IMG/VR virus record: IMGVR_UViG_3300045988_129841
Location: 1 to 15,005 of that record
DNA from: a virus
Strand: one strand, 5' to 3'
DNA length: 15,005 bases
Positions 2,394-15,005 of the stretch are shown here, one piece after another; the first letter of the stretch is position 1; each line of letters begins with the position of its first letter. A program made the position numbers and the translations under genes. The notes under the pieces were generated by a model. That model ran no database searches and was not told the origin of the DNA. It worked only from the letters and a program-made list of their open reading frames with translations.

Positions 2394-3149
2394 CTAATAA
2401 ATCAACATGAATAAGTCGCAACAGTCGTCACATATCATTTTGTTAATGTTTAGAATGTTTTCACGAATTTTTTTGATTTCCTCTTGATAACTACCGGAAA
2501 AACCTTTTTCTTCGTGTTTCAAAATTCTGTTTTTATCGTCAATGTTTTTCGAAACGATATTCGTATTGCCGGAATCGTTGCTTAGTGTAGCGTCTGAATT
2601 TTCCACAACCTTTTTTGTTTGTCCACGCACTAAGTCACTTGCATAGTCATTTTGCGAAAAATTAATCTGCGGCGCGTCACTTGTGATAGATTGATTATCA
2701 CTTGTGCTATTACCGTGACCGTTACTATTGCTTGCGGCGCTATTATTATGCTTACTATCGTTTGTATAATCCGTGATGTTCGTCTCGTTGACTTTATCGG
2801 ATGAAGTGAATACACGATTTATAAGCGGCTCATATTCGAATAATGTTGTTCGGTAAAGTTCTTTATAATATGGCATGATTTCAAGCATTTTTTGCTTAAA
2901 AGCAAACTTCCACGCGTCCGGCGTTTCGAATCCTATTGATTCGTTGAAATAAGTATAACATAAATACTTCTCAAATTCAACCTTAATTTTTTCATTTTCT
3001 ACATAAAAAGGAAAATCAAAATCAAACAGTTTTGAATAGCAGTTTTCTACTAAATCGAATCCGCTATTTTTTCCGGCGTACATATCCACGCCGCCATAAT
3101 ACGCTAGTAAAAATCCTATTGATGTACTAGGATAACCAAGATTACTCAT
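2394..3149 (-). CDS. Probable lower collar protein (phi29 gp11 position) with a Ser/Asn-rich disordered insert
   Basis: It follows the portal gene directly with an ATGA start/stop overlap at 3146-3149. Size (251 aa) and synteny match gp11. I could not confirm direct sequence similarity. Confidence 0.55.
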   Translation of the reverse strand: MSNLGYPSTSIGFLLAYYGGVDMYAGKNSGFDLVENCYSKLFDFDFPFYVENEKIKVEFEKYLCYTYFNESIGFETPDAWKFAFKQKMLEIMPYYKELYRTTLFEYEPLINRVFTSSDKVNETNITDYTNDSKHNNSAASNSNGHGNSTSDNQSITSDAPQINFSQNDYASDLVRGQTKKVVENSDATLSNDSGNTNIVSKNIDDKNRILKHEEKGFSGSYQEEIKKIRENILNINKMICDDCCDLFMLIY

Positions 3150-4030
3150 TTTTCTCCTCCGTCCTCATTGTTAGTCATACCGAACTGCTGATACACACCG
3201 CTAACATCAATACTGCTAAGCGGCTCAACGTCAATATCTTTTTCGGTTAATCCGAATACTTTTCGAATCTGTATGCAACTTCTTTTTCTAAGTTCAAGTG
3301 CGCTTTTTAGATTAATTTCTGTAATACCGTTATTACTCTCAACCTCTCCCATTATCATACGTTCTTTTTTTGTGTCTCCGTTATTTGCAATTCCTATTTC
3401 TGTTAAAAAATCAGAAATTTCCTGCTTCATCAATGCTTGAATATTACTTGCGTTATACGGTACGTCAAGATTGAGGACTTTTAAACTGGTCATATCGAAC
3501 TTATCATTTACCGTTATCCACGGTATGAAATTAGCAAGTTGTTTGAAAAGATTTGAAACGCTTAATTTTGTATTACGATTTCCGGCGCATATATACGGCG
3601 TACGCAACGCAACTAGGTTTAAATCACGCGTTAGCCGCATGGTTGCCAATGCTTCGGCGTGCATTATGATAATATCGTTGTAAGGGTACTGGGTGTAGCT
3701 ATCATATATTAAGACGCTGTTTTCTTTTGTGTACTCTCCGACATAGTTATTTGCGTACGCGAAACGCATATCACCGTGATTATAATTATCCATTCGTCCG
3801 GCTTCATTAATCTTCGCTACTCCATAAAGTTCCGCTACTTCATCTTTAAAAAAGATAGCTTCACCATAATCTAATAGGATTTCTTCTAAAAATCGCGGCG
3901 GGATTTCTTCCGGTAACTTCCATTTAAAACGCGAAGTATATATATTTCTCAAAAGAAAATAATAACGTGTATAATATTGCTGATAGCGTTCCCCTTGGTT
4001 CATTGTGTTTTTCTCTTTACATGGATTCAT
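3146..4030 (-). CDS. Portal / upper collar connector protein (phi29 gp10-like)
   Basis: [29 protein letters not shown] resembles phi29 gp10 [48 protein letters not shown] resembles KKERMVTDEVSSNDEQIE. Size is 294 aa versus 309 aa, and synteny agrees. Confidence 0.85.
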   Translation of the reverse strand: [294 protein letters not shown]

Positions 4031-4048: not shown

Positions 4049-4070
4049 AAATGTTTCACGTGAAACATTT
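4049..4070. promoter_or_regulatory. Perfect 22-bp palindrome AAATGTTTCACGTGAAACATTT between the tail-knob and portal genes (copy A of a recurring element)
   Basis: The sequence is fully self-complementary. It overlaps the tail-knob stop codon by 2 nt and sits 6 nt upstream of the portal SD. Related copies occur at 10556-10595 and 11266-11289. Confidence 0.7.
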
Positions 4071-5658
4071 AATTATTTTCAACTGAGAAGTTTCCTACAT
4101 CATTTATATGCCAAAAGAACACTCCCTTTTCAATAATAGAAGTCAGCTTTTCCCTTGCCTGCGGTTCTGTGATACCTTTAAAAGTTACGTCTCTTGCCTG
4201 TAAATAATTCCACGCGCTCCTACTTTTAATATCCGGCTTCGCTATTTCTTCCACACGATAGCCATAAACCGTGAAAATGTTATCAATTTTTTTCAAGTAT
4301 TCCTCTGTACAATGTATTCTCACAACCCTTATTCCTAAATTTTTATTCCAAAAAGAAGTGTAGCCGCCCGCGCTTGTGAAAGACGCATCACTTGCTACGT
4401 CAGCGTGCTGAATTGTACTTGCAAGAGACACCGCACCACTAGCCGCGCTAGGTAAATTTCCGCTTAAAGCTGAAATACCGACGGTAGCCGCCTGCGCTCC
4501 GATTGCAATAGAATTATTCGCTAAGTACGCTTTGAGAGAATCAATCGGAACTCCTAATTTTGGAAAATCGTTATAAGAAATCTGATATTGCTTATTCTCC
4601 GCAAGATTACAATAGTTACGAGGTATCATTACCATGGTCGGAATGGTGTCCGGCGGCAACGAAATATCAAACGCGGCTCTTTCACCGCCGAAATATTCTA
4701 ATTTCAAACTTTCTAACGTGGTTTGTCCGTTATTCAGTCCAATGAAATTATACGGATAACAGAAACATTTATTATTTTTCGGTTTATAAGAACCGATAGA
4801 ATCACCGTATTTCTCAACTGATACACTGAATTTTTTTGTACCGGAAAAAATATAAGGCGCAAGCCCTATAGCAATTATGTTACTAGCTTCTTCCGTAGTC
4901 ATGTTATTAATCGCGGTTTGAATATCAGCCGCGCTCACATATGTATCATATGTACAACCGTAGTAAATACCGTCAATAATCTGCTTATCTCTTTCGCTTT
5001 CTTTCGTTGTCCATCGCATTAAAAAATAATAAATAGCGTTCGGAGAAGTGTCATTTTCCGCGGTGTCCGGTCTAGGTGGTATTAATCCCTCATGTACTGT
5101 AAATCCGGTCGGCGTTGGATATGTTCCGCTTTCGCTTATGGTGAACTCGCTAGAATCCGGATAGTTATATTCATACTGCCCAACTTCCAATCCCTCCGGA
5201 TATGTGTACGCTCCGATTATATCGTTTTTTTTCGCCACATGACTTCTTAAGATATAGCAAGGATTTATTTCAATTTTTGAAAAATTTTCCTGCCATACAT
5301 CTAATTCGAACGTTATTAAGCAACTGTTTACGCTAAGCGGTGTCACACCAGTAATAAAAGCGTAGTGATTTTTCTTCTCAAGCGGCTTATTTGAAAAGTA
5401 AAGATAATTACAGTTAAGCGGCTCAATTTCGTTATACGGAAGTCTTACAGTCAACTGTCCTATTTTAACCGGACTTGCGTTTACTTCCGTTTTTACTGTT
5501 TTTGAGAGAAGGAAAGTGTCCAACTCTGATACCGAATTAAACAACCGTATATTTTTATAACCGTTATCCCACGGTATACCGGCGCACAAATTGATTGTTG
5601 TCTCCGGTGCAAGTCCTATGATTTCATGTTGTGTCGGCATATCAATAAAGTTTTCCAC
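4069..5658 (-). CDS. Tail knob protein (phi29 gp9-like)
   Basis: The N-terminus (IPWDNGYKNIRLF ... HYAFITGV ... FELDVWQ) parallels phi29 gp9 (VPFSNDYKNTRWF ... FYAFVTEL ... FEIDVLQ). The C-terminus (YGYRVEEIAKPDIKSRSAWNYLQ ... GVFFWHINDVGNFSVEN) parallels YGYKINRVKKPNLRTRKAFNYVQ ... GITLWHTDNIGNYSVEN. The start is GTG at 5658, well spaced from GAGAGG; the next ATG, at 5640, is too far from the SD. Confidence 0.9.
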   Translation of the reverse strand: MENFIDMPTQHEIIGLAPETTINLCAGIPWDNGYKNIRLFNSVSELDTFLLSKTVKTEVNASPVKIGQLTVRLPYNEIEPLNCNYLYFSNKPLEKKNHYAFITGVTPLSVNSCLITFELDVWQENFSKIEINPCYILRSHVAKKNDIIGAYTYPEGLEVGQYEYNYPDSSEFTISESGTYPTPTGFTVHEGLIPPRPDTAENDTSPNAIYYFLMRWTTKESERDKQIIDGIYYGCTYDTYVSAADIQTAINNMTTEEASNIIAIGLAPYIFSGTKKFSVSVEKYGDSIGSYKPKNNKCFCYPYNFIGLNNGQTTLESLKLEYFGGERAAFDISLPPDTIPTMVMIPRNYCNLAENKQYQISYNDFPKLGVPIDSLKAYLANNSIAIGAQAATVGISALSGNLPSAASGAVSLASTIQHADVASDASFTSAGGYTSFWNKNLGIRVVRIHCTEEYLKKIDNIFTVYGYRVEEIAKPDIKSRSAWNYLQARDVTFKGITEPQAREKLTSIIEKGVFFWHINDVGNFSVENN

Positions 5659-5680
5659 TTTTCTTACCTCTCTTTCTATA

Positions 5681-6958
5681 TTAACCAGTGATTGTTACTG
5701 TTCCTGTTCCGGTGATTGAATTATCCCAGTGGGCTTTTACAGTCACGGTAAGACTTTCTGCCTTTTCGTCATTTGCAATCATTAACACGTTACTTCCCGG
5801 GACGAAAGCGGTGTGTGTAGAAGTATTTCCGCTGACTTCATAGTCAAAGGTCTGTAATACGTAATCCTCTGCGGTAGTTGGCGCGGCTAAAGCGGTGATT
5901 TTATACTCACTTCCTTTTTTCGCGTTCTCGATTGGTGTAACGTCAATCTTCTTCATGCTGACTGTTTTTGTGGTGAACGCAATACAAGGAAAAAACGGAC
6001 TATATGAATACATATTCTTAATGTTATAAAAATACGTCCAAGTCAAAGCCGCGCCGTTTTTACTGTCTGACATAACGCGATACTGTTCGCGAACTCTGTA
6101 CCAACGCATATCAAATAATGCTACCTTAATATCGTCATTGCCGAATGAATCAATTACAATCTTATGCGCTTCAATATCGGCTTTATTCATATTAAAGGCG
6201 TACGCCAATACGTCAACGTCCAGGACAGCGTCCACTTCCGGCGTTACCATATAATATATGCCGTCAAGGAGAGCGTTACTGTCTGCCCCTGCAATATTCA
6301 AATTCTTATTTGGGAACTTCATTTTTCCAATCCAAGTCTTCATTGCAATGGTTAACGCTTTCGCACTCGCTTCGTCTGTTGGGTCGGCAACCTGCACAGG
6401 AAAAAGCTGAGACGAATTATACGCCGAAACAATTAACTGCTTCATGGAAAGATATTCATCCCACTCTGCGCCGGATACGGTAGATTCTACTTTCGCTCGA
6501 ATCAAATCCATAATACCGTACTCTGTCTGAAAAGCATTACGCATATTATCATAAGTAACAGTAATCGGATACTGCAAAGCAGGTGACATATGATGATAAG
6601 CCGCCAAGACTTCCCCCTCATAGTATTTATACAGTACGGACGCGTCGGCGAATCCGTCAAAAACCTGCGCTTTCGCCATGTTAACGAAAATCTCCTGTTC
6701 AGTTGCACCGTATCGCATTGGGTTACTTTTTAACATTCCAAGTGGGTTTCTGAAGTACGCGGAATTGATGCGCCCCTGCACCATTTGTTCAATTAAGGCA
6801 GAAGCGAATGCGCTTCTAATTACTTCTACATTAAGAACCTGTTCATAAACTGATGCAATGTTTTCAAGTGTCACTTCCGGCAGTCTGTCGGCAGGAAGTA
6901 AACCGCTATTTCGCATAGCATTTAATACATTAACGTTCGTTGGTTTTACATCTCCCAT
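5681..6958 (-). CDS. Major capsid protein (phi29 gp8-like) with a C-terminal Ig-like (BIG2-type) domain
   Basis: LDVDVLAYAFNMNKADI resembles phi29 gp8 LDVDVLAKAFNMNRTDF, with further collinear matches. The beta-rich C-terminal roughly 90 aa ends in TVKAHWDNSITGTGTVTITG. The gene follows the scaffold gene. Confidence 0.9.
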   Translation of the reverse strand: MGDVKPTNVNVLNAMRNSGLLPADRLPEVTLENIASVYEQVLNVEVIRSAFASALIEQMVQGRINSAYFRNPLGMLKSNPMRYGATEQEIFVNMAKAQVFDGFADASVLYKYYEGEVLAAYHHMSPALQYPITVTYDNMRNAFQTEYGIMDLIRAKVESTVSGAEWDEYLSMKQLIVSAYNSSQLFPVQVADPTDEASAKALTIAMKTWIGKMKFPNKNLNIAGADSNALLDGIYYMVTPEVDAVLDVDVLAYAFNMNKADIEAHKIVIDSFGNDDIKVALFDMRWYRVREQYRVMSDSKNGAALTWTYFYNIKNMYSYSPFFPCIAFTTKTVSMKKIDVTPIENAKKGSEYKITALAAPTTAEDYVLQTFDYEVSGNTSTHTAFVPGSNVLMIANDEKAESLTVTVKAHWDNSITGTGTVTITG

Positions 6959-9014: not shown

Positions 9015-9158
9015 TTTCCACTCTCCTATTTTTTCGCGGTTTTACGGTGGCTTAAGATTGCCACCGCGCCGCTGTTTATATATAAACCGCGTCCGGTAAT
9101 CACTCCGGCTAAAATGTGTTTTCCCACATGATTGAAAATTTGCTACGCGGTATATATC
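9015..9158 (-). other. GC-rich, highly structured 144-nt non-coding spacer; candidate ncRNA (possibly pRNA-like) or late regulatory region
   Basis: It is the largest internal non-coding gap. Hand-folding of the minus strand gives a 7-bp helix (ACCGCGU 9151-9145 with ACGCGGU 9092-9086) enclosing two hairpins (AUGUG-GGAAAA-CACAU and CCGG-AGUGAUUA-CCGG). This is followed by the 14-bp palindrome GTTTATATATAAAC and a strong hairpin CGGUGGC-AAUCUUAA-GCCACCG (9066-9045). My count for 9031-9110 is 41 G+C out of 80. Confidence 0.3.
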
Positions 9159-9383: not shown

Positions 9384-9428
9384 GTTTTTTCTCCTTTTCT
9401 GTGCTGTCGTTTTCTTGTTTCTATATAT

Positions 9429-9458
9429 ACAATACCACTTGTTTTATTTTTTTGTCAA
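9429..9458 (-). promoter_or_regulatory. Sigma-A type promoter upstream of the 74-aa gene and possibly the whole lysis/structural operon
   Basis: Minus strand reads TTGACA (9458-9453), an 18-nt spacer, then TATTGT (9434-9429). The downstream leader (TTTTCTGTgcTGTcGTTTtCTTGTTTCT on the plus strand) is a diverged copy of the leaders at 541-587 and 11893-11940. Confidence 0.55.
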
Positions 9459-9475: not shown

Positions 9476-10543
9476 TTAAAAAATTTCCCTACCAATTAAA
9501 TGAAGAAAAGCATCTTTTGATTTCAAATCACAGAAACGCACCTGTCCTTGTGAATACGCTTCTTTTAAGGTCTGTGCTAAACCACTGAACCTTGTTAAAA
9601 GTATGGTATTTTCGCCGTGGTCGGCGTTGTCAAGCGTAAAGCACTTCGCGCCCTTATCTATTTTTTGGTTGATGTAGAGCAAATTATCTCTATGACATTC
9701 GCGAATTGCGAACCGTTCACCGTCCTGCACAAATGTTAAAAGGTATGTACTTTTTCCGGACAAATTCGCTATAAATTCATTATCGTTATAAATTCCGATA
9801 TTTTTTGTGGCGTACTGCACATGACGATTTCCCGCGAACGCTTTTGAAATTCCCAGTTCGCTTGTCTGTTTTTTCGCTGATTCGTTTACCGTTTCTACGT
9901 AAATGTAAGAATCACCGCGAATAATTCCGTTTTTATCCGGCTTCTCGCGATAACATCCCAACTGTAGCAAATAGGGATTTATCTGCGAAAAAGAGTTCCC
10001 AAGTAAAAAAAACTCAACTTCTTTTCCTTGTTTTCCGCTACCTCTTGAAATAGTATACGCAACGGACAGATACTTGTCAACCTCATTTTTTAAGTAGTCT
10101 TCTACTTTTTCAAGCTGGAATTCGTCCATGCCTGCTCTCTTCACTTTGTCAAAAATCGGACTGTATTTTTTTAACTTGTCACAATCGGAAATTGAAATCG
10201 CAAAGCCGATAATTTCGTCATGATTCATAATCTTACGAATAATGCCACTTGCTATAGGGATAGATGTTATTTCCATATCTGGAAATTTGTCTGCTACTAC
10301 GCAAGAAAAGATACTATCAACACCTAGCATTTCTGAACGCGTCCTGTATTCTAACACAAATTGACCATTTCCGGCGCGAAACTGCTTAATGAAATACCAC
10401 AGTAAAGAATAAGTCTTACCGCCGCTTCGGTTCGTTGCGTAAATACGTATAGACGGTATTCTATTATGTTTATCAGCTATGTCAAGGTAGTCCATAATAT
10501 TAAAAAAACCTTTATCGAATTTATGTGTTATCTCGTTTTTCAT
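9476..10543 (-). CDS. DNA encapsidation (packaging) ATPase, phi29 gp16-like
   Basis: Walker A is ATNRSGGKTYS (G41-T44) and Walker B is AGMDEF. FFLLGNSFSQINPYLL parallels gp16 CICLSNAVSVVNPYFL. Size is 355 aa versus 332 aa. Confidence 0.85.
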   Translation of the reverse strand: MKNEITHKFDKGFFNIMDYLDIADKHNRIPSIRIYATNRSGGKTYSLLWYFIKQFRAGNGQFVLEYRTRSEMLGVDSIFSCVVADKFPDMEITSIPIASGIIRKIMNHDEIIGFAISISDCDKLKKYSPIFDKVKRAGMDEFQLEKVEDYLKNEVDKYLSVAYTISRGSGKQGKEVEFFLLGNSFSQINPYLLQLGCYREKPDKNGIIRGDSYIYVETVNESAKKQTSELGISKAFAGNRHVQYATKNIGIYNDNEFIANLSGKSTYLLTFVQDGERFAIRECHRDNLLYINQKIDKGAKCFTLDNADHGENTILLTRFSGLAQTLKEAYSQGQVRFCDLKSKDAFLHLIGREIF

Positions 10544-10555
10544 AACATCACCTAG

Positions 10556-10595
10556 AAAAATGTTTCACGTGAACATTTCTGTAACACGTGAAACA
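10556..10595. promoter_or_regulatory. Two tandem degenerate copies of the CACGTG palindrome (copy B), together forming a terminator-like hairpin
   Basis: TGTTTCACGTG (10561-10571) and CACGTGAAACA (10585-10595) are an 11-bp inverted repeat with a 13-nt spacer. On the minus strand the hairpin is followed by UUUUU (10560-10556). It lies between the SSB-like stop and the ATPase start. Confidence 0.6.
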
Positions 10596-10604
10596 ATATT
10601 ATAA

Positions 10605-10946
10605 TTAAATAGAAGCGTAATAATATTCGCGTCCTGCATTACTCTTCCCTGTCTTAATGATTACATCCATATCTTTCGCGCCGCCTGTGATTTCATCATC
10701 GAATACATCCGCTACAACTTCCATGGATTCTACCATTGTCGGTGAAATTGTTCCGATGAAATCTCCGTCACTTGTCTTAATGACTACGGTCTTTACTTCG
10801 TCACCGTTCACATTCGTGGTTGTCCCGAAGATAATTCCGGAAACTTTTACAGTGGTGTTTTTAAAATCAGTTACTGCTTTCGCGTCATTGTTCGCGCGTA
10901 CGAAATCTTTTTTGTCTGTAATGTTATACGTGTTTGTAATTTTCAT
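10605..10946 (-). CDS. Probable single-stranded DNA-binding protein (phi29 p5-like)
   Basis: KTVVIKTSDGDFIGTISPTMVESMEVVADV ... VIIKTGKSNAGREYYYASI parallels phi29 p5 [30 protein letters not shown] ... VKVVQGTSSKGNVFFSLQL. Size is 113 aa versus 124 aa. The comparison is by eye, from memory. Confidence 0.55.
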   Translation of the reverse strand: MKITNTYNITDKKDFVRANNDAKAVTDFKNTTVKVSGIIFGTTTNVNGDEVKTVVIKTSDGDFIGTISPTMVESMEVVADVFDDEITGGAKDMDVIIKTGKSNAGREYYYASI

Positions 10947-11228: not shown

Positions 11229-11265
11229 TTTCTTTACCTCTCTTTCTTGTTATTTTTTTATTTTA

Positions 11266-11289
11266 AAAATGTTTCGCGTGAAACATTTT
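11266..11289. promoter_or_regulatory. Copy C of the recurring palindrome: AAAATGTTTC-GCGT-GAAACATTTT
   Basis: It has 10-bp arms around a 4-nt centre. It overlaps the stop codon of the 130-aa gene. On the minus strand it is followed by UAAAAUAAAAAAAU. Confidence 0.6.
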
Positions 11290-11891: not shown

Positions 11892-11940
11892 TTTTCTTTA
11901 CCTCTCTTTTTCTGTTATGTTGTTTCTTGTTTCTGTAATT

Positions 11941-11969
11941 ATAATATCATAGGTTTTATAGAATGTCAA
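11941..11969 (-). promoter_or_regulatory. Sigma-A type promoter; its -35 box contains the DNA polymerase stop codon
   Basis: Minus strand reads TTGACA (11969-11964), a 17-nt spacer ending in TGA, then TATTAT (11946-11941). The polymerase TGA stop (11968-11966) is embedded in the TTGACA. Confidence 0.7.
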
Positions 11970-14083
11970 CTGTTTTTTTCAATTTTTTCAAAATCTTTTA
12001 TTTTCTGACAACTCATAATAATATTAGAATATTCATCTGTAACGCCTAAAGTATATGTGGTTTCCACAATGCCAATATTACTGGAAGTGGTGAAAGTATC
12101 ACCATTTACCGTAATCTTGAATATTTTATCGGTGTCGTTATAATAAGCTGTTGACCGTCCGACATTTTCAAAAGTATTCCCTATTTTAAAATTCCCAGCA
12201 TTTCCTACGACTTTCGCGCCTTTTTCTTTCGCCATCCCCGCAACCGTAATTCCGAATACATATTTGTTTTTCTTTTTATCAAAAGTTTCATAACAGTATT
12301 TTTTCGCGCCCAGCGTCTTAAAGGTCTTGTATTCTGCATCTTTTTCAAATATTCCGGCGTAACACAATTGACCTTTTGAATTTTTCGCTACAAGACAAGT
12401 GTCACTTTTTTTCGCTTCTTCTATCAATTTTCTATTGTAATCTTCGAACGCTAATTCGTGGTCATTAAAAAATTTATCTGAATCGGTGTCAACGTAAACG
12501 GTGTCATTTCCGGTTATTCTGATAGCGTCATAAAGTTGTGCACGTCCATATGCCGGCACAAAAACGCCTTGCTGATAAATTAAAAAGTTCTTCCGTGATT
12601 TATAAAAACTTTCCAAGTCTTTTTTTAACTTGTCAGCGTCAGCCTTTACGCTTGACCATTCGCCGCCACTCCAATTTATTATATCATGACATATATCCGT
12701 AATTTCCATTCCGTACGCTCCATTGAGTTTATTCTTACTTTTCATGTATTCATAATAAGCGGCTTCTATCCCTTTAAGTTTTGTTTTCGCTTCATAAAAT
12801 TCAAGATTCTGCTGTCGGTATTCAAGATTCATTCTCTCTTTTCTACAGTACATGAATTTAACAAGCTGAAAAGAAGATATATTATAAACTTCTTTTATAA
12901 TCTCATAATCAACATTCGTAATAGTTATCATGATTTCTTTCGCGGAAAGAAGTTTACCGTTATCGTTTAAAATGTCACAATGTTCCTTGCATTTTGAGAT
13001 TGAAATATAAGGAATCGGCGTGTTTTTTTTCGTTTCTATATTGAAAAATCGAACCGTAAAAATGCAAGCGTAATTTTCACATAAAAAGTCAAGTTCTTTT
13101 TTCGTTTCGATACTGATTTCCGACCATTTACCAACCGGAAAAAGTTTACTTTCTGACTGGTACGGATAACTACTTTGAATATCTCTACTATGTAGATTTT
13201 TTAAAATTTGATTCGAATAAAAGCGGTTAGCGTGAGCCACGCCACCGGAAACCGCGTCACGGCATTGCGTATATTCTTCCGGTGAAAGTGCGGAAGAAAG
13301 AAAAAGAGTACGATTCATGGGATTGGCGGTAACGGCGTTCCGAAAATCATTACGAACATATCCGGTAGAAGTGAGCGGGATTCTTAATATATCATACTCC
13401 GTTAATTTCTCCGCTATACATTCACATAAACCGCGTACATCATTATAATTATAAGCCTTTTCATATTCTCTTAATTCTGTTCGTGGAGTACGAATTTTTT
13501 TATAATTAAATTCTTCTCCGTTTAACTTCATATGAACACAAGTCTTAGAATTTTCACAAAATTTACTCAGGCTCATATTAGACAGGAAATAAGAGCAACG
13601 CCATTCAAAGCCTCCACCGGACAGTTTAAGCGGTTTACGTTCATCTTTCGCAAAAAGGTCTGAAACCGTAATAAAATTCTGGATATACTGAAACTCGAAA
13701 GAAAGGTTATGCACGTAAACAACTAGTCGTTGTTTATCATTTAGACACATAGTTTTTTTTAAACGCGCAAGAAAAATCTGAAAATCTTCCCATGTACGCC
13801 CAAAAACTACCGTATCAATTAAGCAGAATTGCCAATGATACATAAAGCCGAACGGTGGCGTATCGTAAATTTTTCTACCGTGATTATCATATATAAAATG
13901 CGGTTCGATTGTCGTTGTCTCAATGTCAAACGCTGCCGGAATATTAAAAGCAGAATATCCGTGTTTACCTTTTTTTGTCACAATTTCACAGTCAGCAAAC
14001 ATATCATAAGGAAAATCGTTTATATTATAAATTTTTTCCATGCTCATTGTATTGTCTTTTAAAGGTACATTTATAATTTCCAT
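11966..14083 (-). CDS. Family-B, protein-primed DNA polymerase (phi29 gp2-like)
   Basis: Motifs read directly: ExoI FDIETTT (D53/E55), ExoII HNLSFEF, ExoIII YNYND (Y211/D215), motif A DIQSSYPY (D301), motif B KLNGAYG (K452), motif C YVDTDS (aa 530-535, nt 12496-12479) and KxY LGAKKY. It is coupled to the upstream gene (TAA, two A, then ATG). Confidence 0.95.
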   Translation of the reverse strand: MEIINVPLKDNTMSMEKIYNINDFPYDMFADCEIVTKKGKHGYSAFNIPAAFDIETTTIEPHFIYDNHGRKIYDTPPFGFMYHWQFCLIDTVVFGRTWEDFQIFLARLKKTMCLNDKQRLVVYVHNLSFEFQYIQNFITVSDLFAKDERKPLKLSGGGFEWRCSYFLSNMSLSKFCENSKTCVHMKLNGEEFNYKKIRTPRTELREYEKAYNYNDVRGLCECIAEKLTEYDILRIPLTSTGYVRNDFRNAVTANPMNRTLFLSSALSPEEYTQCRDAVSGGVAHANRFYSNQILKNLHSRDIQSSYPYQSESKLFPVGKWSEISIETKKELDFLCENYACIFTVRFFNIETKKNTPIPYISISKCKEHCDILNDNGKLLSAKEIMITITNVDYEIIKEVYNISSFQLVKFMYCRKERMNLEYRQQNLEFYEAKTKLKGIEAAYYEYMKSKNKLNGAYGMEITDICHDIINWSGGEWSSVKADADKLKKDLESFYKSRKNFLIYQQGVFVPAYGRAQLYDAIRITGNDTVYVDTDSDKFFNDHELAFEDYNRKLIEEAKKSDTCLVAKNSKGQLCYAGIFEKDAEYKTFKTLGAKKYCYETFDKKKNKYVFGITVAGMAKEKGAKVVGNAGNFKIGNTFENVGRSTAYYNDTDKIFKITVNGDTFTTSSNIGIVETTYTLGVTDEYSNIIMSCQKIKDFEKIEKNS

Positions 14084-14698: not shown

Positions 14699-14745
14699 GA
14701 CGGATATATTCGAACACAATTTCGAACATATGTTCTAAAACTCGG

Positions 14746-14766
14746 CTGTTCGCCGCCCGCGGACAG
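14746..14766. promoter_or_regulatory. Right-end copy of the GC-rich ITR-boundary hairpin
   Basis: Reverse complement of 240-260. It lies about 50 bp upstream of the -35 of the terminal-protein/polymerase promoter. Confidence 0.4.
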
Positions 14767-14944
14767 TCGAACGTTTGTTCTAATTTATTGTCAGAAATCT
14801 TTGTGAATTGTCAGAATATTCTGTAATTGGTGGTCGAAATCGAATATTTTCTGATAATTCATTGTCTAATTTGCACAAAATCTGTGCTGTTTTCAGATTA
14901 AAATTTGTTGGAATTGCCTATTGACTTTTCTAGTGATTTGTGCT

Positions 14945-14996
14945 AGTGTCCGTGTGTGGTGGACAAATGGGAAAAAGTGTCCGTGTGTGGTGGACA
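14945..14996. repeat. Mirror copies of the 21-bp terminal direct repeats in ITR-R (14945-14965 and 14976-14996)
   Basis: Reverse complement of 10-61. Confidence 0.8.
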
Positions 14997-15005
14997 TATT
15001 ACAGG

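Follow-up and report, generated by a model that had tools for sequence, protein, structure and literature searches.

Recurrent gene-junction palindromes in a phi29-like gut podovirus as probable host-type parS centromere sites

The palindromes that recur at gene junctions of the window, the whole 15,005-bp stretch of viral DNA analysed here, are very probably chromosomal-type parS centromere sites, carried by a phi29-like, protein-primed podovirus of gut Bacillota that would be segregated by the ParB of its host. As judged from the sequence, the 16 bp at their core, TGTTTCACGTGAAACA, are those of the optimal parS of bacterial chromosomes, on which ParB/Spo0J nucleates. This identity is supported by sequence and by comparison with related genomes, while the binding of ParB, its spreading over the 15-kb genome and the hitch-hiking on origin segregation are proposed by analogy, from the phi29 precedent and from ParB biology. 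The initial annotation had ascribed the palindromes to a sequence-specific reader, among others a dimeric DNA-binding regulator, and such a reader is likely, the core being the ParB/Spo0J site.

The window is a complete linear phi29-like genome (36.7% GC, approximately 90% coding) bounded by a perfect inverted terminal repeat (ITR) of 265 bp (1-265 and 14741-15005). All its long ORFs lie on the minus strand and, with every gene on that strand, upstream and downstream are read along it throughout. The genes needed to place the palindromes, together with the PolB gene by which the phage is defined as phi29-like, are the following:

3146-4030, minus strand: connector/portal gene, phi29 gp10 family (Pfam PF05352, E = 4e-40), downstream of parS-A
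4069-5658, minus strand: tail knob gene, phi29 gp9 family (Pfam PF20934 and PF16838), upstream of parS-A
9476-10543, minus strand: DNA encapsidation ATPase gene, gp16 family (Pfam PF05894), downstream of the parS-B pair
11966-14083, minus strand: protein-primed PolB gene (Pfam PF03175)

The phi29 major capsid family is also present in the window (Pfam PF25622, E = 1e-68). Pfam further recognises a holin, an endolysin with Amidase_3 and SPOR domains and a tail lysozyme, to which PHROGs adds a lower collar protein. The 113-aa and 76-aa ORFs, previously labelled SSB-like and p6-like, have no match in Pfam or PHROGs. The ITR is long for a phi29-like phage, that of phi29 measuring 6 bp; it holds a G+C-rich hairpin with a 12-bp stem (236-264 and 14742-14770), as well as direct repeats of GTCCACCACACACGGACAC close to the genome ends.

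As the initial annotation had noticed, the palindrome recurs at three gene junctions, as the single copies A and C and the degenerate tandem copy B; the same family was recovered independently by a repeat finder. The individual sites, named after these copies, are as follows:

4052-4067: parS-A, matching TGTTTCACGTGAAACA at 16 of 16 positions; the palindrome reaches 4049-4070 and lies between the knob stop codon and the ribosome-binding site (RBS) of the connector gene
10580-10595: parS-B1, TGTAACACGTGAAACA on the plus strand, with two mismatches, both in one arm; the upstream member, in gene direction, of the pair ahead of the gp16 gene
10561-10575: parS-B2, TGTTTCACGTGAACA, the consensus minus one A in one arm; 17 nt separate its end from the gp16 start codon downstream (ATG 10543-10541)
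11270-11285: parS-C, TGTTTCGCGTGAAACA, with one mismatch at position 7; the flanks widen the palindrome to 11265-11289, between the stop codon of the 130-aa ORF and the 76-aa ORF

Copy A is a perfect 22-bp palindrome, AAATGTTTCACGTGAAACATTT (4049-4070), that shares 2 nt with the knob stop codon. Copy C, AAAATGTTTCGCGTGAAACATTTT (11266-11289), overlaps the stop codon of the 130-aa ORF and has the core CGCGTG instead of CACGTG, and copy B consists of two degenerate copies in tandem (10561-10575 and 10580-10595). The earlier statement that all copies begin at or overlap an upstream stop codon holds for A and C, which start at the stop codon of the upstream gene on the minus strand, but not for B, which begins 9 nt past a stop codon (10605-10607) and ends 17 nt short of the gp16 start. 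The distance to the next start codon is 21 nt from the end of copy A and 41 nt from the end of copy C. TTTGAG follows copy A, in agreement with the U-tract reported as absent there, and a T5 run stands after both copy B and copy C.

These matches are far more numerous than chance would provide. The 18-mer, with up to three mismatches, is found three times in the window, where 0.01 matches would be expected, and none of 200 shuffled sequences attains that number; the 16-mer, with up to two mismatches, gives three window sites against 0.02 expected, in addition to the deletion variant at 10561. A sequencing-adapter artefact was considered and ruled out, as degenerate copies stand beside exact ones and their positions are conserved across independent assemblies.

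The assignment of the core to parS follows the usage of the literature. For the ParB/Spo0J site of B. subtilis, TGTTTCACGTGAAACA is given as the 'optimal sequence' (PMC4333373), and the parS consensus is named for species of several phyla (PMC7022226). It was by this consensus, with up to two mismatches, that parS was located in gut bacteria, where ParABS was present in all 12 species examined, with 1-10 parS sites per genome (PMC10197239). When a 16-bp inverted repeat matching TGTTNCACGTGAAACA with up to two mismatches is taken as parS, the window has sites at 4052 (0 mismatches), 11270 (1) and 10580 (2). Both the sequence and the mismatch tolerance are those of the optimal chromosomal site of Bacillota and most bacteria. 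Unlike chromosomal parS, however, the window sites lie on a virulent-type phage and away from oriC, and they are dense: approximately one per 5 kb in the window, where each phage base is within about 6.5 kb of a site, and one per 6.5 kb in its relatives, compared with 1-10 sites in each bacterial genome.

At least 120 IMG/VR contigs contain the 18-mer without mismatch, and approximately 40 of them are phi29-like. The GC content of these contigs ranges from 27% to 70%, a span that excludes a lineage-specific operator and points to something common to most bacteria. Among other known motifs, the CcpA cre, PadR (ATGT-N8-ACAT), LexA/Cheo box, Fnr/CRP, Noc NBS and phi29 p4 box were compared with the core; none fits all of its 16 positions, whereas parS fits 16 of 16. 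Plasmid and prophage centromeres (P1 parS, F sopC, N15 and KorB OB) likewise act in cis, bringing a ParB-family protein to a replicon outside the chromosome. Elements of the P1, F, N15 and KorB type supply ParA and ParB themselves, and their centromere sequences are private. By contrast, the window phage encodes no ParA or ParB and copies the host site; a ParB (ParBc) domain was found by Pfam and PHROGs in none of its proteins.

Conservation was followed in 81 related IMG/VR genomes, which were collected by capsid homology (32-97% capsid identity) and hence blind to the motif. The search in relatives that had been recommended as a check located at least one parS (up to two mismatches) in 75 of the 81, with 180 sites in 1,178 kb against approximately 0 in shuffles, while 287 kb of Clostridia chromosomal DNA, used as a control, contained 0 sites. 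In four close relatives (L121-L124) the sites stand at the junctions of the window and are mostly perfect: parS-A has its counterpart at the same knob/connector junction, and the position of parS-C is occupied by a perfect site. Relatives with a tandem pair of the copy-B type combine one degenerate and one perfect copy, and the one-nucleotide-deletion variant seen in parS-B2 was found twice more in L124. One further junction is informative through its absence of a site in the window:

5659-5680: empty site at the capsid/knob junction; a clean 21-column alignment gap in the window where close relatives have parS

Here, perfect sites are present in L121 and L123, a variant with a 1-nt deletion in L124, and a decayed copy with non-compensatory changes in L122. 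Whole-site gain, loss and decay are seen at this junction among near-identical genomes.

Clade-wide, the sites are concentrated in two places, the interval from PolB to gp16 and the region that follows the capsid gene. In phi29-like genomes 59% of them fall within the 10% of the DNA that is intergenic, typically occupying the gap from a stop codon to the next RBS. Because sites in coding sequence also exist, this placement is most simply understood as the cheapest spot for a 16-bp palindrome in a compact genome. In a sister clade of approximately 55% capsid identity (L190-L223), an exact parS lies in frame inside the PolB ORF (for example at 2334-2349 of L192). There, the 16-mer encodes V-S-R-E-T and is kept though the flanking residues differ between subgroups, a sequence pattern that points to selection at the DNA level.

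The same intergenic enrichment could be expected if the palindromes acted mainly as RNA hairpins, terminating, attenuating, stabilising or marking processing and so setting the stoichiometry of capsid, knob and portal, with the parS match incidental. RNA processing and attenuation had been listed among the possible functions from the beginning, and several observations fit them. On the coding strand, every copy in the window falls between genes, the copy directly after the capsid gene in relatives occupies a classic attenuator position, and T5 follows copies B and C. The folding energies proposed as a check are -11.8, -17.5 and -10.4 kcal/mol for the window hairpins (z from -3.5 to -4.0 against shuffles), which makes these hairpins thermodynamically real. 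However, across 140 non-redundant sites from phi29-like genomes the changed positions comprise 99 one-sided changes and 1 compensatory change, unlike the non-coding gap at 9015-9158, which does show compensatory pairs in the same close relatives. In addition, only 10 of the 54 co-directional intergenic sites have at least five T within the next 8 nt. One-sided changes and few U-tracts together indicate that RNA structure is not what is conserved, which bears out the earlier claim that sequence rather than structure is maintained.

Like the sites described here, intrinsic terminators and attenuators are palindromes that lie between genes and follow highly expressed ones, and short T runs, as at copies B and C, are a further common trait. 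They differ from these sites in stem composition, U-tract and covariation: the stems of the palindromes are AT-rich, with 2 G-C pairs outside the 4-nt loop, and gave no call in the terminator scan; a U-tract is missing from copy A and from most related sites; and no covariation of the arms was seen. The occurrence of parS within ORFs, including that of PolB, and the exact 16-mer common to hosts and phages of 27-70% GC argue further against an RNA element, so that a primary role as RNA hairpins is improbable. A hairpin that looks different from the palindromes stands at 642-671, after the fibre gene. It has a stem of 12-13 bp (TTTTCTAGGGA...TCCCTAGAAAA), is T-rich on both strands and looks like a conventional bidirectional terminator, unlike the parS hairpins. 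Given the stability of the latter and the T5 at copies B and C, the parS sites may still exert a secondary effect at the RNA level.

A second view takes the palindromes as operators of a dimeric regulator encoded by the phage itself, namely one of its orphan proteins of 64-130 aa, and has very little probability. In its favour, several of the small ORFs could be assigned to no family, ribosome-binding sites follow shortly after the palindromes, and no homologue of p4 was detected by Pfam or PHROGs, as the initial annotation had remarked. However, a private operator would co-vary with its regulator, whereas this motif equals the host centromere and is invariant across phi29-like clades that have 25-40% protein identity and different early genes; it is also found in cultured Bacillus and Clostridium phages. 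The attributes of a p4-like operator (lineage specificity, overlap with a promoter and a cognate phage protein) were not recognised. No promoter-like hexamers coincide with the window palindromes, and Pfam and PHROGs recognised no HTH, p4 or other DNA-binding family among the phage proteins, although an absent match is weak evidence.

The actual repeated regulatory element of the phage is a different one, a promoter-leader cassette of 92 nt. It is present in two copies of 79% identity (555-646 and 11908-11999), with a partial third at 9411-9447, and on the minus strand contains a near-consensus promoter, TTGACA-17-TATTAT with TG. The leader is shared and runs up to the RBS of two ORFs, those of 84 and 64 aa, and the partial copy precedes the 74-aa ORF. 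It is these cassettes, rather than the palindromes, that resemble repeated transcription signals belonging to the phage itself. The undescribed circuit of the phage's own that had been suggested for the palindromes is thereby not borne out: with a core equal to host parS, an 18-mer in at least 120 contigs, a precedent in the phi29 family and no ParB or HTH protein detected in the phage, the supposed new regulatory circuit is replaced by a known mechanism, host-centromere mimicry.

Host-centromere mimicry is already known in phages of the phi29 family. Both phi29 and Nf were reportedly described by Meijer et al. in 2005 as carrying parS and as being entrapped in spores in a Spo0J-dependent manner. 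A scan of phi29 (NC_011048) gave four copies of TGTTTCACGTGGAACA, which lie inside genes 10, 15 and 17 except for one that starts 1 nt past the gene 16 stop codon. According to a published report, phi29 'contains five parS sites', and the segregation of its genome into the prespore involves Spo0J (PMC2731898). The window phage is of the same virus type as phi29 and Nf, with a protein-primed PolB, homologues of gp8, gp9, gp10 and gp16 (all found as Pfam families) and an ITR. Like them, it carries several host-type 16-bp parS on a small linear genome without a ParB of its own, and the phi29 site after gene 16 also recalls the position of window sites just after a stop codon. There are differences as well. 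All window genes are on one strand; the window sites match the perfect palindrome, where phi29 has the TGTTCCACGTGAAACA variant; they are all intergenic, while three of the four strong phi29 sites are inside genes; and one of them is a tandem pair. Furthermore, the host of the window phage is uncultured and probably belongs to gut Clostridia, and the window has no exact Spo0A boxes.

For the exact Spo0A box, TGTCGAA, the counts are 0 in the window against 1.7 expected and 6 in phi29 against 2.5 expected, so that the second arm of the phi29 strategy, the suppression of lytic growth through Spo0A boxes at early and late promoters, is not evident. The relaxed form TGNCGAA occurs 13 times in the window (for example at 10797, 11031, 11146, 11462, 11579 and 12228) against 5.8 in mononucleotide shuffles, a null that ignores codon bias. 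Of these, 11 are on the coding strand, with a concentration in the early region, and codon bias may account for the excess.

The distribution of parS among cultured phi29-like phages was examined in a small, hand-picked panel with phylogeny-blind statistics, in which the phages were divided by the sporulation status of their hosts. Sites were present in 8 of 11 phages of endospore formers and in 1 of 9 phages of non-sporeformers (Fisher p approximately 0.01, ignoring phylogeny). The endospore-former carriers are phi29, Nf, DK1, CI55P1, CI130P1, CI644P1, the Hungatella phage CH17P1 and phiCPV4, and no parS was found in GA-1, PumA1 and susfortuna. Among the phages of non-sporeformers, Cp-1, 44AHJD, phiYS61 and several actinobacterial and rhizobial phages have none, although S. 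pneumoniae, at least, reportedly has a ParB and parS of its own (PMC4488948). Glutamicibacter phage Voltaire, whose host does not sporulate, has two perfect sites (8742/8761). With exceptions in both directions, the link to sporulation is a tendency and not a rule. The highest number of sites among the cultured relatives is seven, reached by the Clostridium phage phiCPV4 within 17 kb (4812/4838, 7846/7871, 9949 and 11824/11849), and these include three tandem pairs; CI55P1, a phage of C. innocuum, has one site. The tandem pairs of phiCPV4 and Voltaire are 19-26 bp apart and intergenic, like copy B of the window.

The host of the window phage is, from sequence comparisons, probably a member of gut Bacillota, Clostridia. 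The nearest genomic relatives of its Amidase_3 and SPOR endolysin all come from gut Clostridia MAGs, at 30-46% identity, and with identities just in this range the host assignment is at class level at best. The nearest GenBank capsids derive from human faecal viromes. A capsid profile searched against GTDB genomes gave 71 pattern matches, none confirmed as a capsid homologue. A megablast of the whole window against GenBank phages returned no match, relatives being found at the protein level only (capsid identity up to 34%), and the exact capsid protein sequence has no prior record.

Under segregation by the host, ParB dimers of the infected cell would nucleate on the phage parS sites after injection, load as CTP-dependent clamps and spread across the phage genome. 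The phage DNA would then act like origin-proximal chromosomal DNA and could be moved by the machinery that segregates the host origin. In a sporulating cell it would be delivered into the forespore, amounting to spore entrapment as for phi29, and in a dividing cell a non-lytic carrier genome could be partitioned. By analogy with phi29, forespore entrapment is the most likely outcome, and partition of a carrier genome is a possible one.

It is also conceivable, though rather unlikely, that ParB reads the sites and that the function under selection is neither segregation nor spore hitch-hiking. ParB might then serve as a roadblock or silencer that times the expression of gp16 and the portal, recruit SMC for compaction of the phage DNA, place replication in the origin or pole region, or be titrated in a way that disturbs host segregation. 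Such functions would suit the location of the sites at boundaries between modules in many unrelated phi29-like genomes, where the next start codon is typically 15-25 nt away, their clustering ahead of gp16 across clades, and the tandem pairs that recur in the window, phiCPV4 and Voltaire. They would suit, too, the two perfect sites of Voltaire, a phage of a non-sporeformer, and the parS found inside a repeated promoter of an unrelated 201-kb contig. On the other side stand the lack of promoter-like hexamers at the window sites and the sites inside ORFs, such as PolB and phi29 genes 10, 15 and 17. Moreover, the only role in the family with reported experimental support is Spo0J-dependent prespore segregation (PMC2731898), and the association with endospore formers favours a prespore role.

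The 201-kb IMG/VR contig (L039), which is not phi29-like, has perfect parS at 4943-4960 and 5818-5835. Each is flanked by a TTGACA box on one side and by a downstream -10-like region on the other, within a promoter-like element of which the contig has two copies, and ParB or a ParB-like protein may be a transcriptional repressor in this phage.

In the literature searched, host-type parS was found described in no other phi29-like or gut phages. Three features appear to be new, with no description found in that literature: how widely parS is spread over the uncultured phi29-like phages of the gut, its presence inside ORFs, and the repeated occurrence of tandem pairs. A mechanism so far studied only in the Bacillus phages phi29 and Nf can now be considered for most members of a big uncultured human-gut clade, in which parS is present, and for cultured phages of C. 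perfringens, C. innocuum and Hungatella, which carry it also. More tentatively, and with doubt prevailing, the copying of the host centromere may be a trait that is near-universal and actively maintained in a large uncultured phi29-like radiation of the gut, and not a peculiarity of phi29. If so, hijacking of ParB, by spore hitch-hiking or as a partitioned carrier state, would be a core persistence strategy of the 'virulent' phages of gut Clostridia. On this view a further, so far undescribed function might attach to the tandem pairs that precede the packaging ATPase gene. If ParB-mediated hitch-hiking into spores or daughter cells does operate there, it would help to account for the persistence of small, strictly lytic phages and for their dispersal along with spore-forming Clostridia of the gut, and would be relevant to phage therapy against C. 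perfringens. For annotation, a parS scan offers a cheap marker of this lifestyle and of a ParB-bearing (Bacillota) host.

A separate feature of the genome concerns RNA. An Rfam scan of the window gave nothing above chance and no match to the pRNA model, and there are no tRNAs. On the minus strand, the 144-nt, G+C-rich non-coding gap at 9015-9158, between the 74-aa ORF and the holin gene, is likewise without an Rfam match and folds strongly as RNA, at -45.6 kcal/mol (z = -4.56). This makes the gap a candidate for a structured non-coding RNA, possibly an analogue of the packaging RNA, an idea that arises because no pRNA is found elsewhere. In L121-L124 the gap is nearly invariant, and the changes that occur there include two compensatory base-pair changes.
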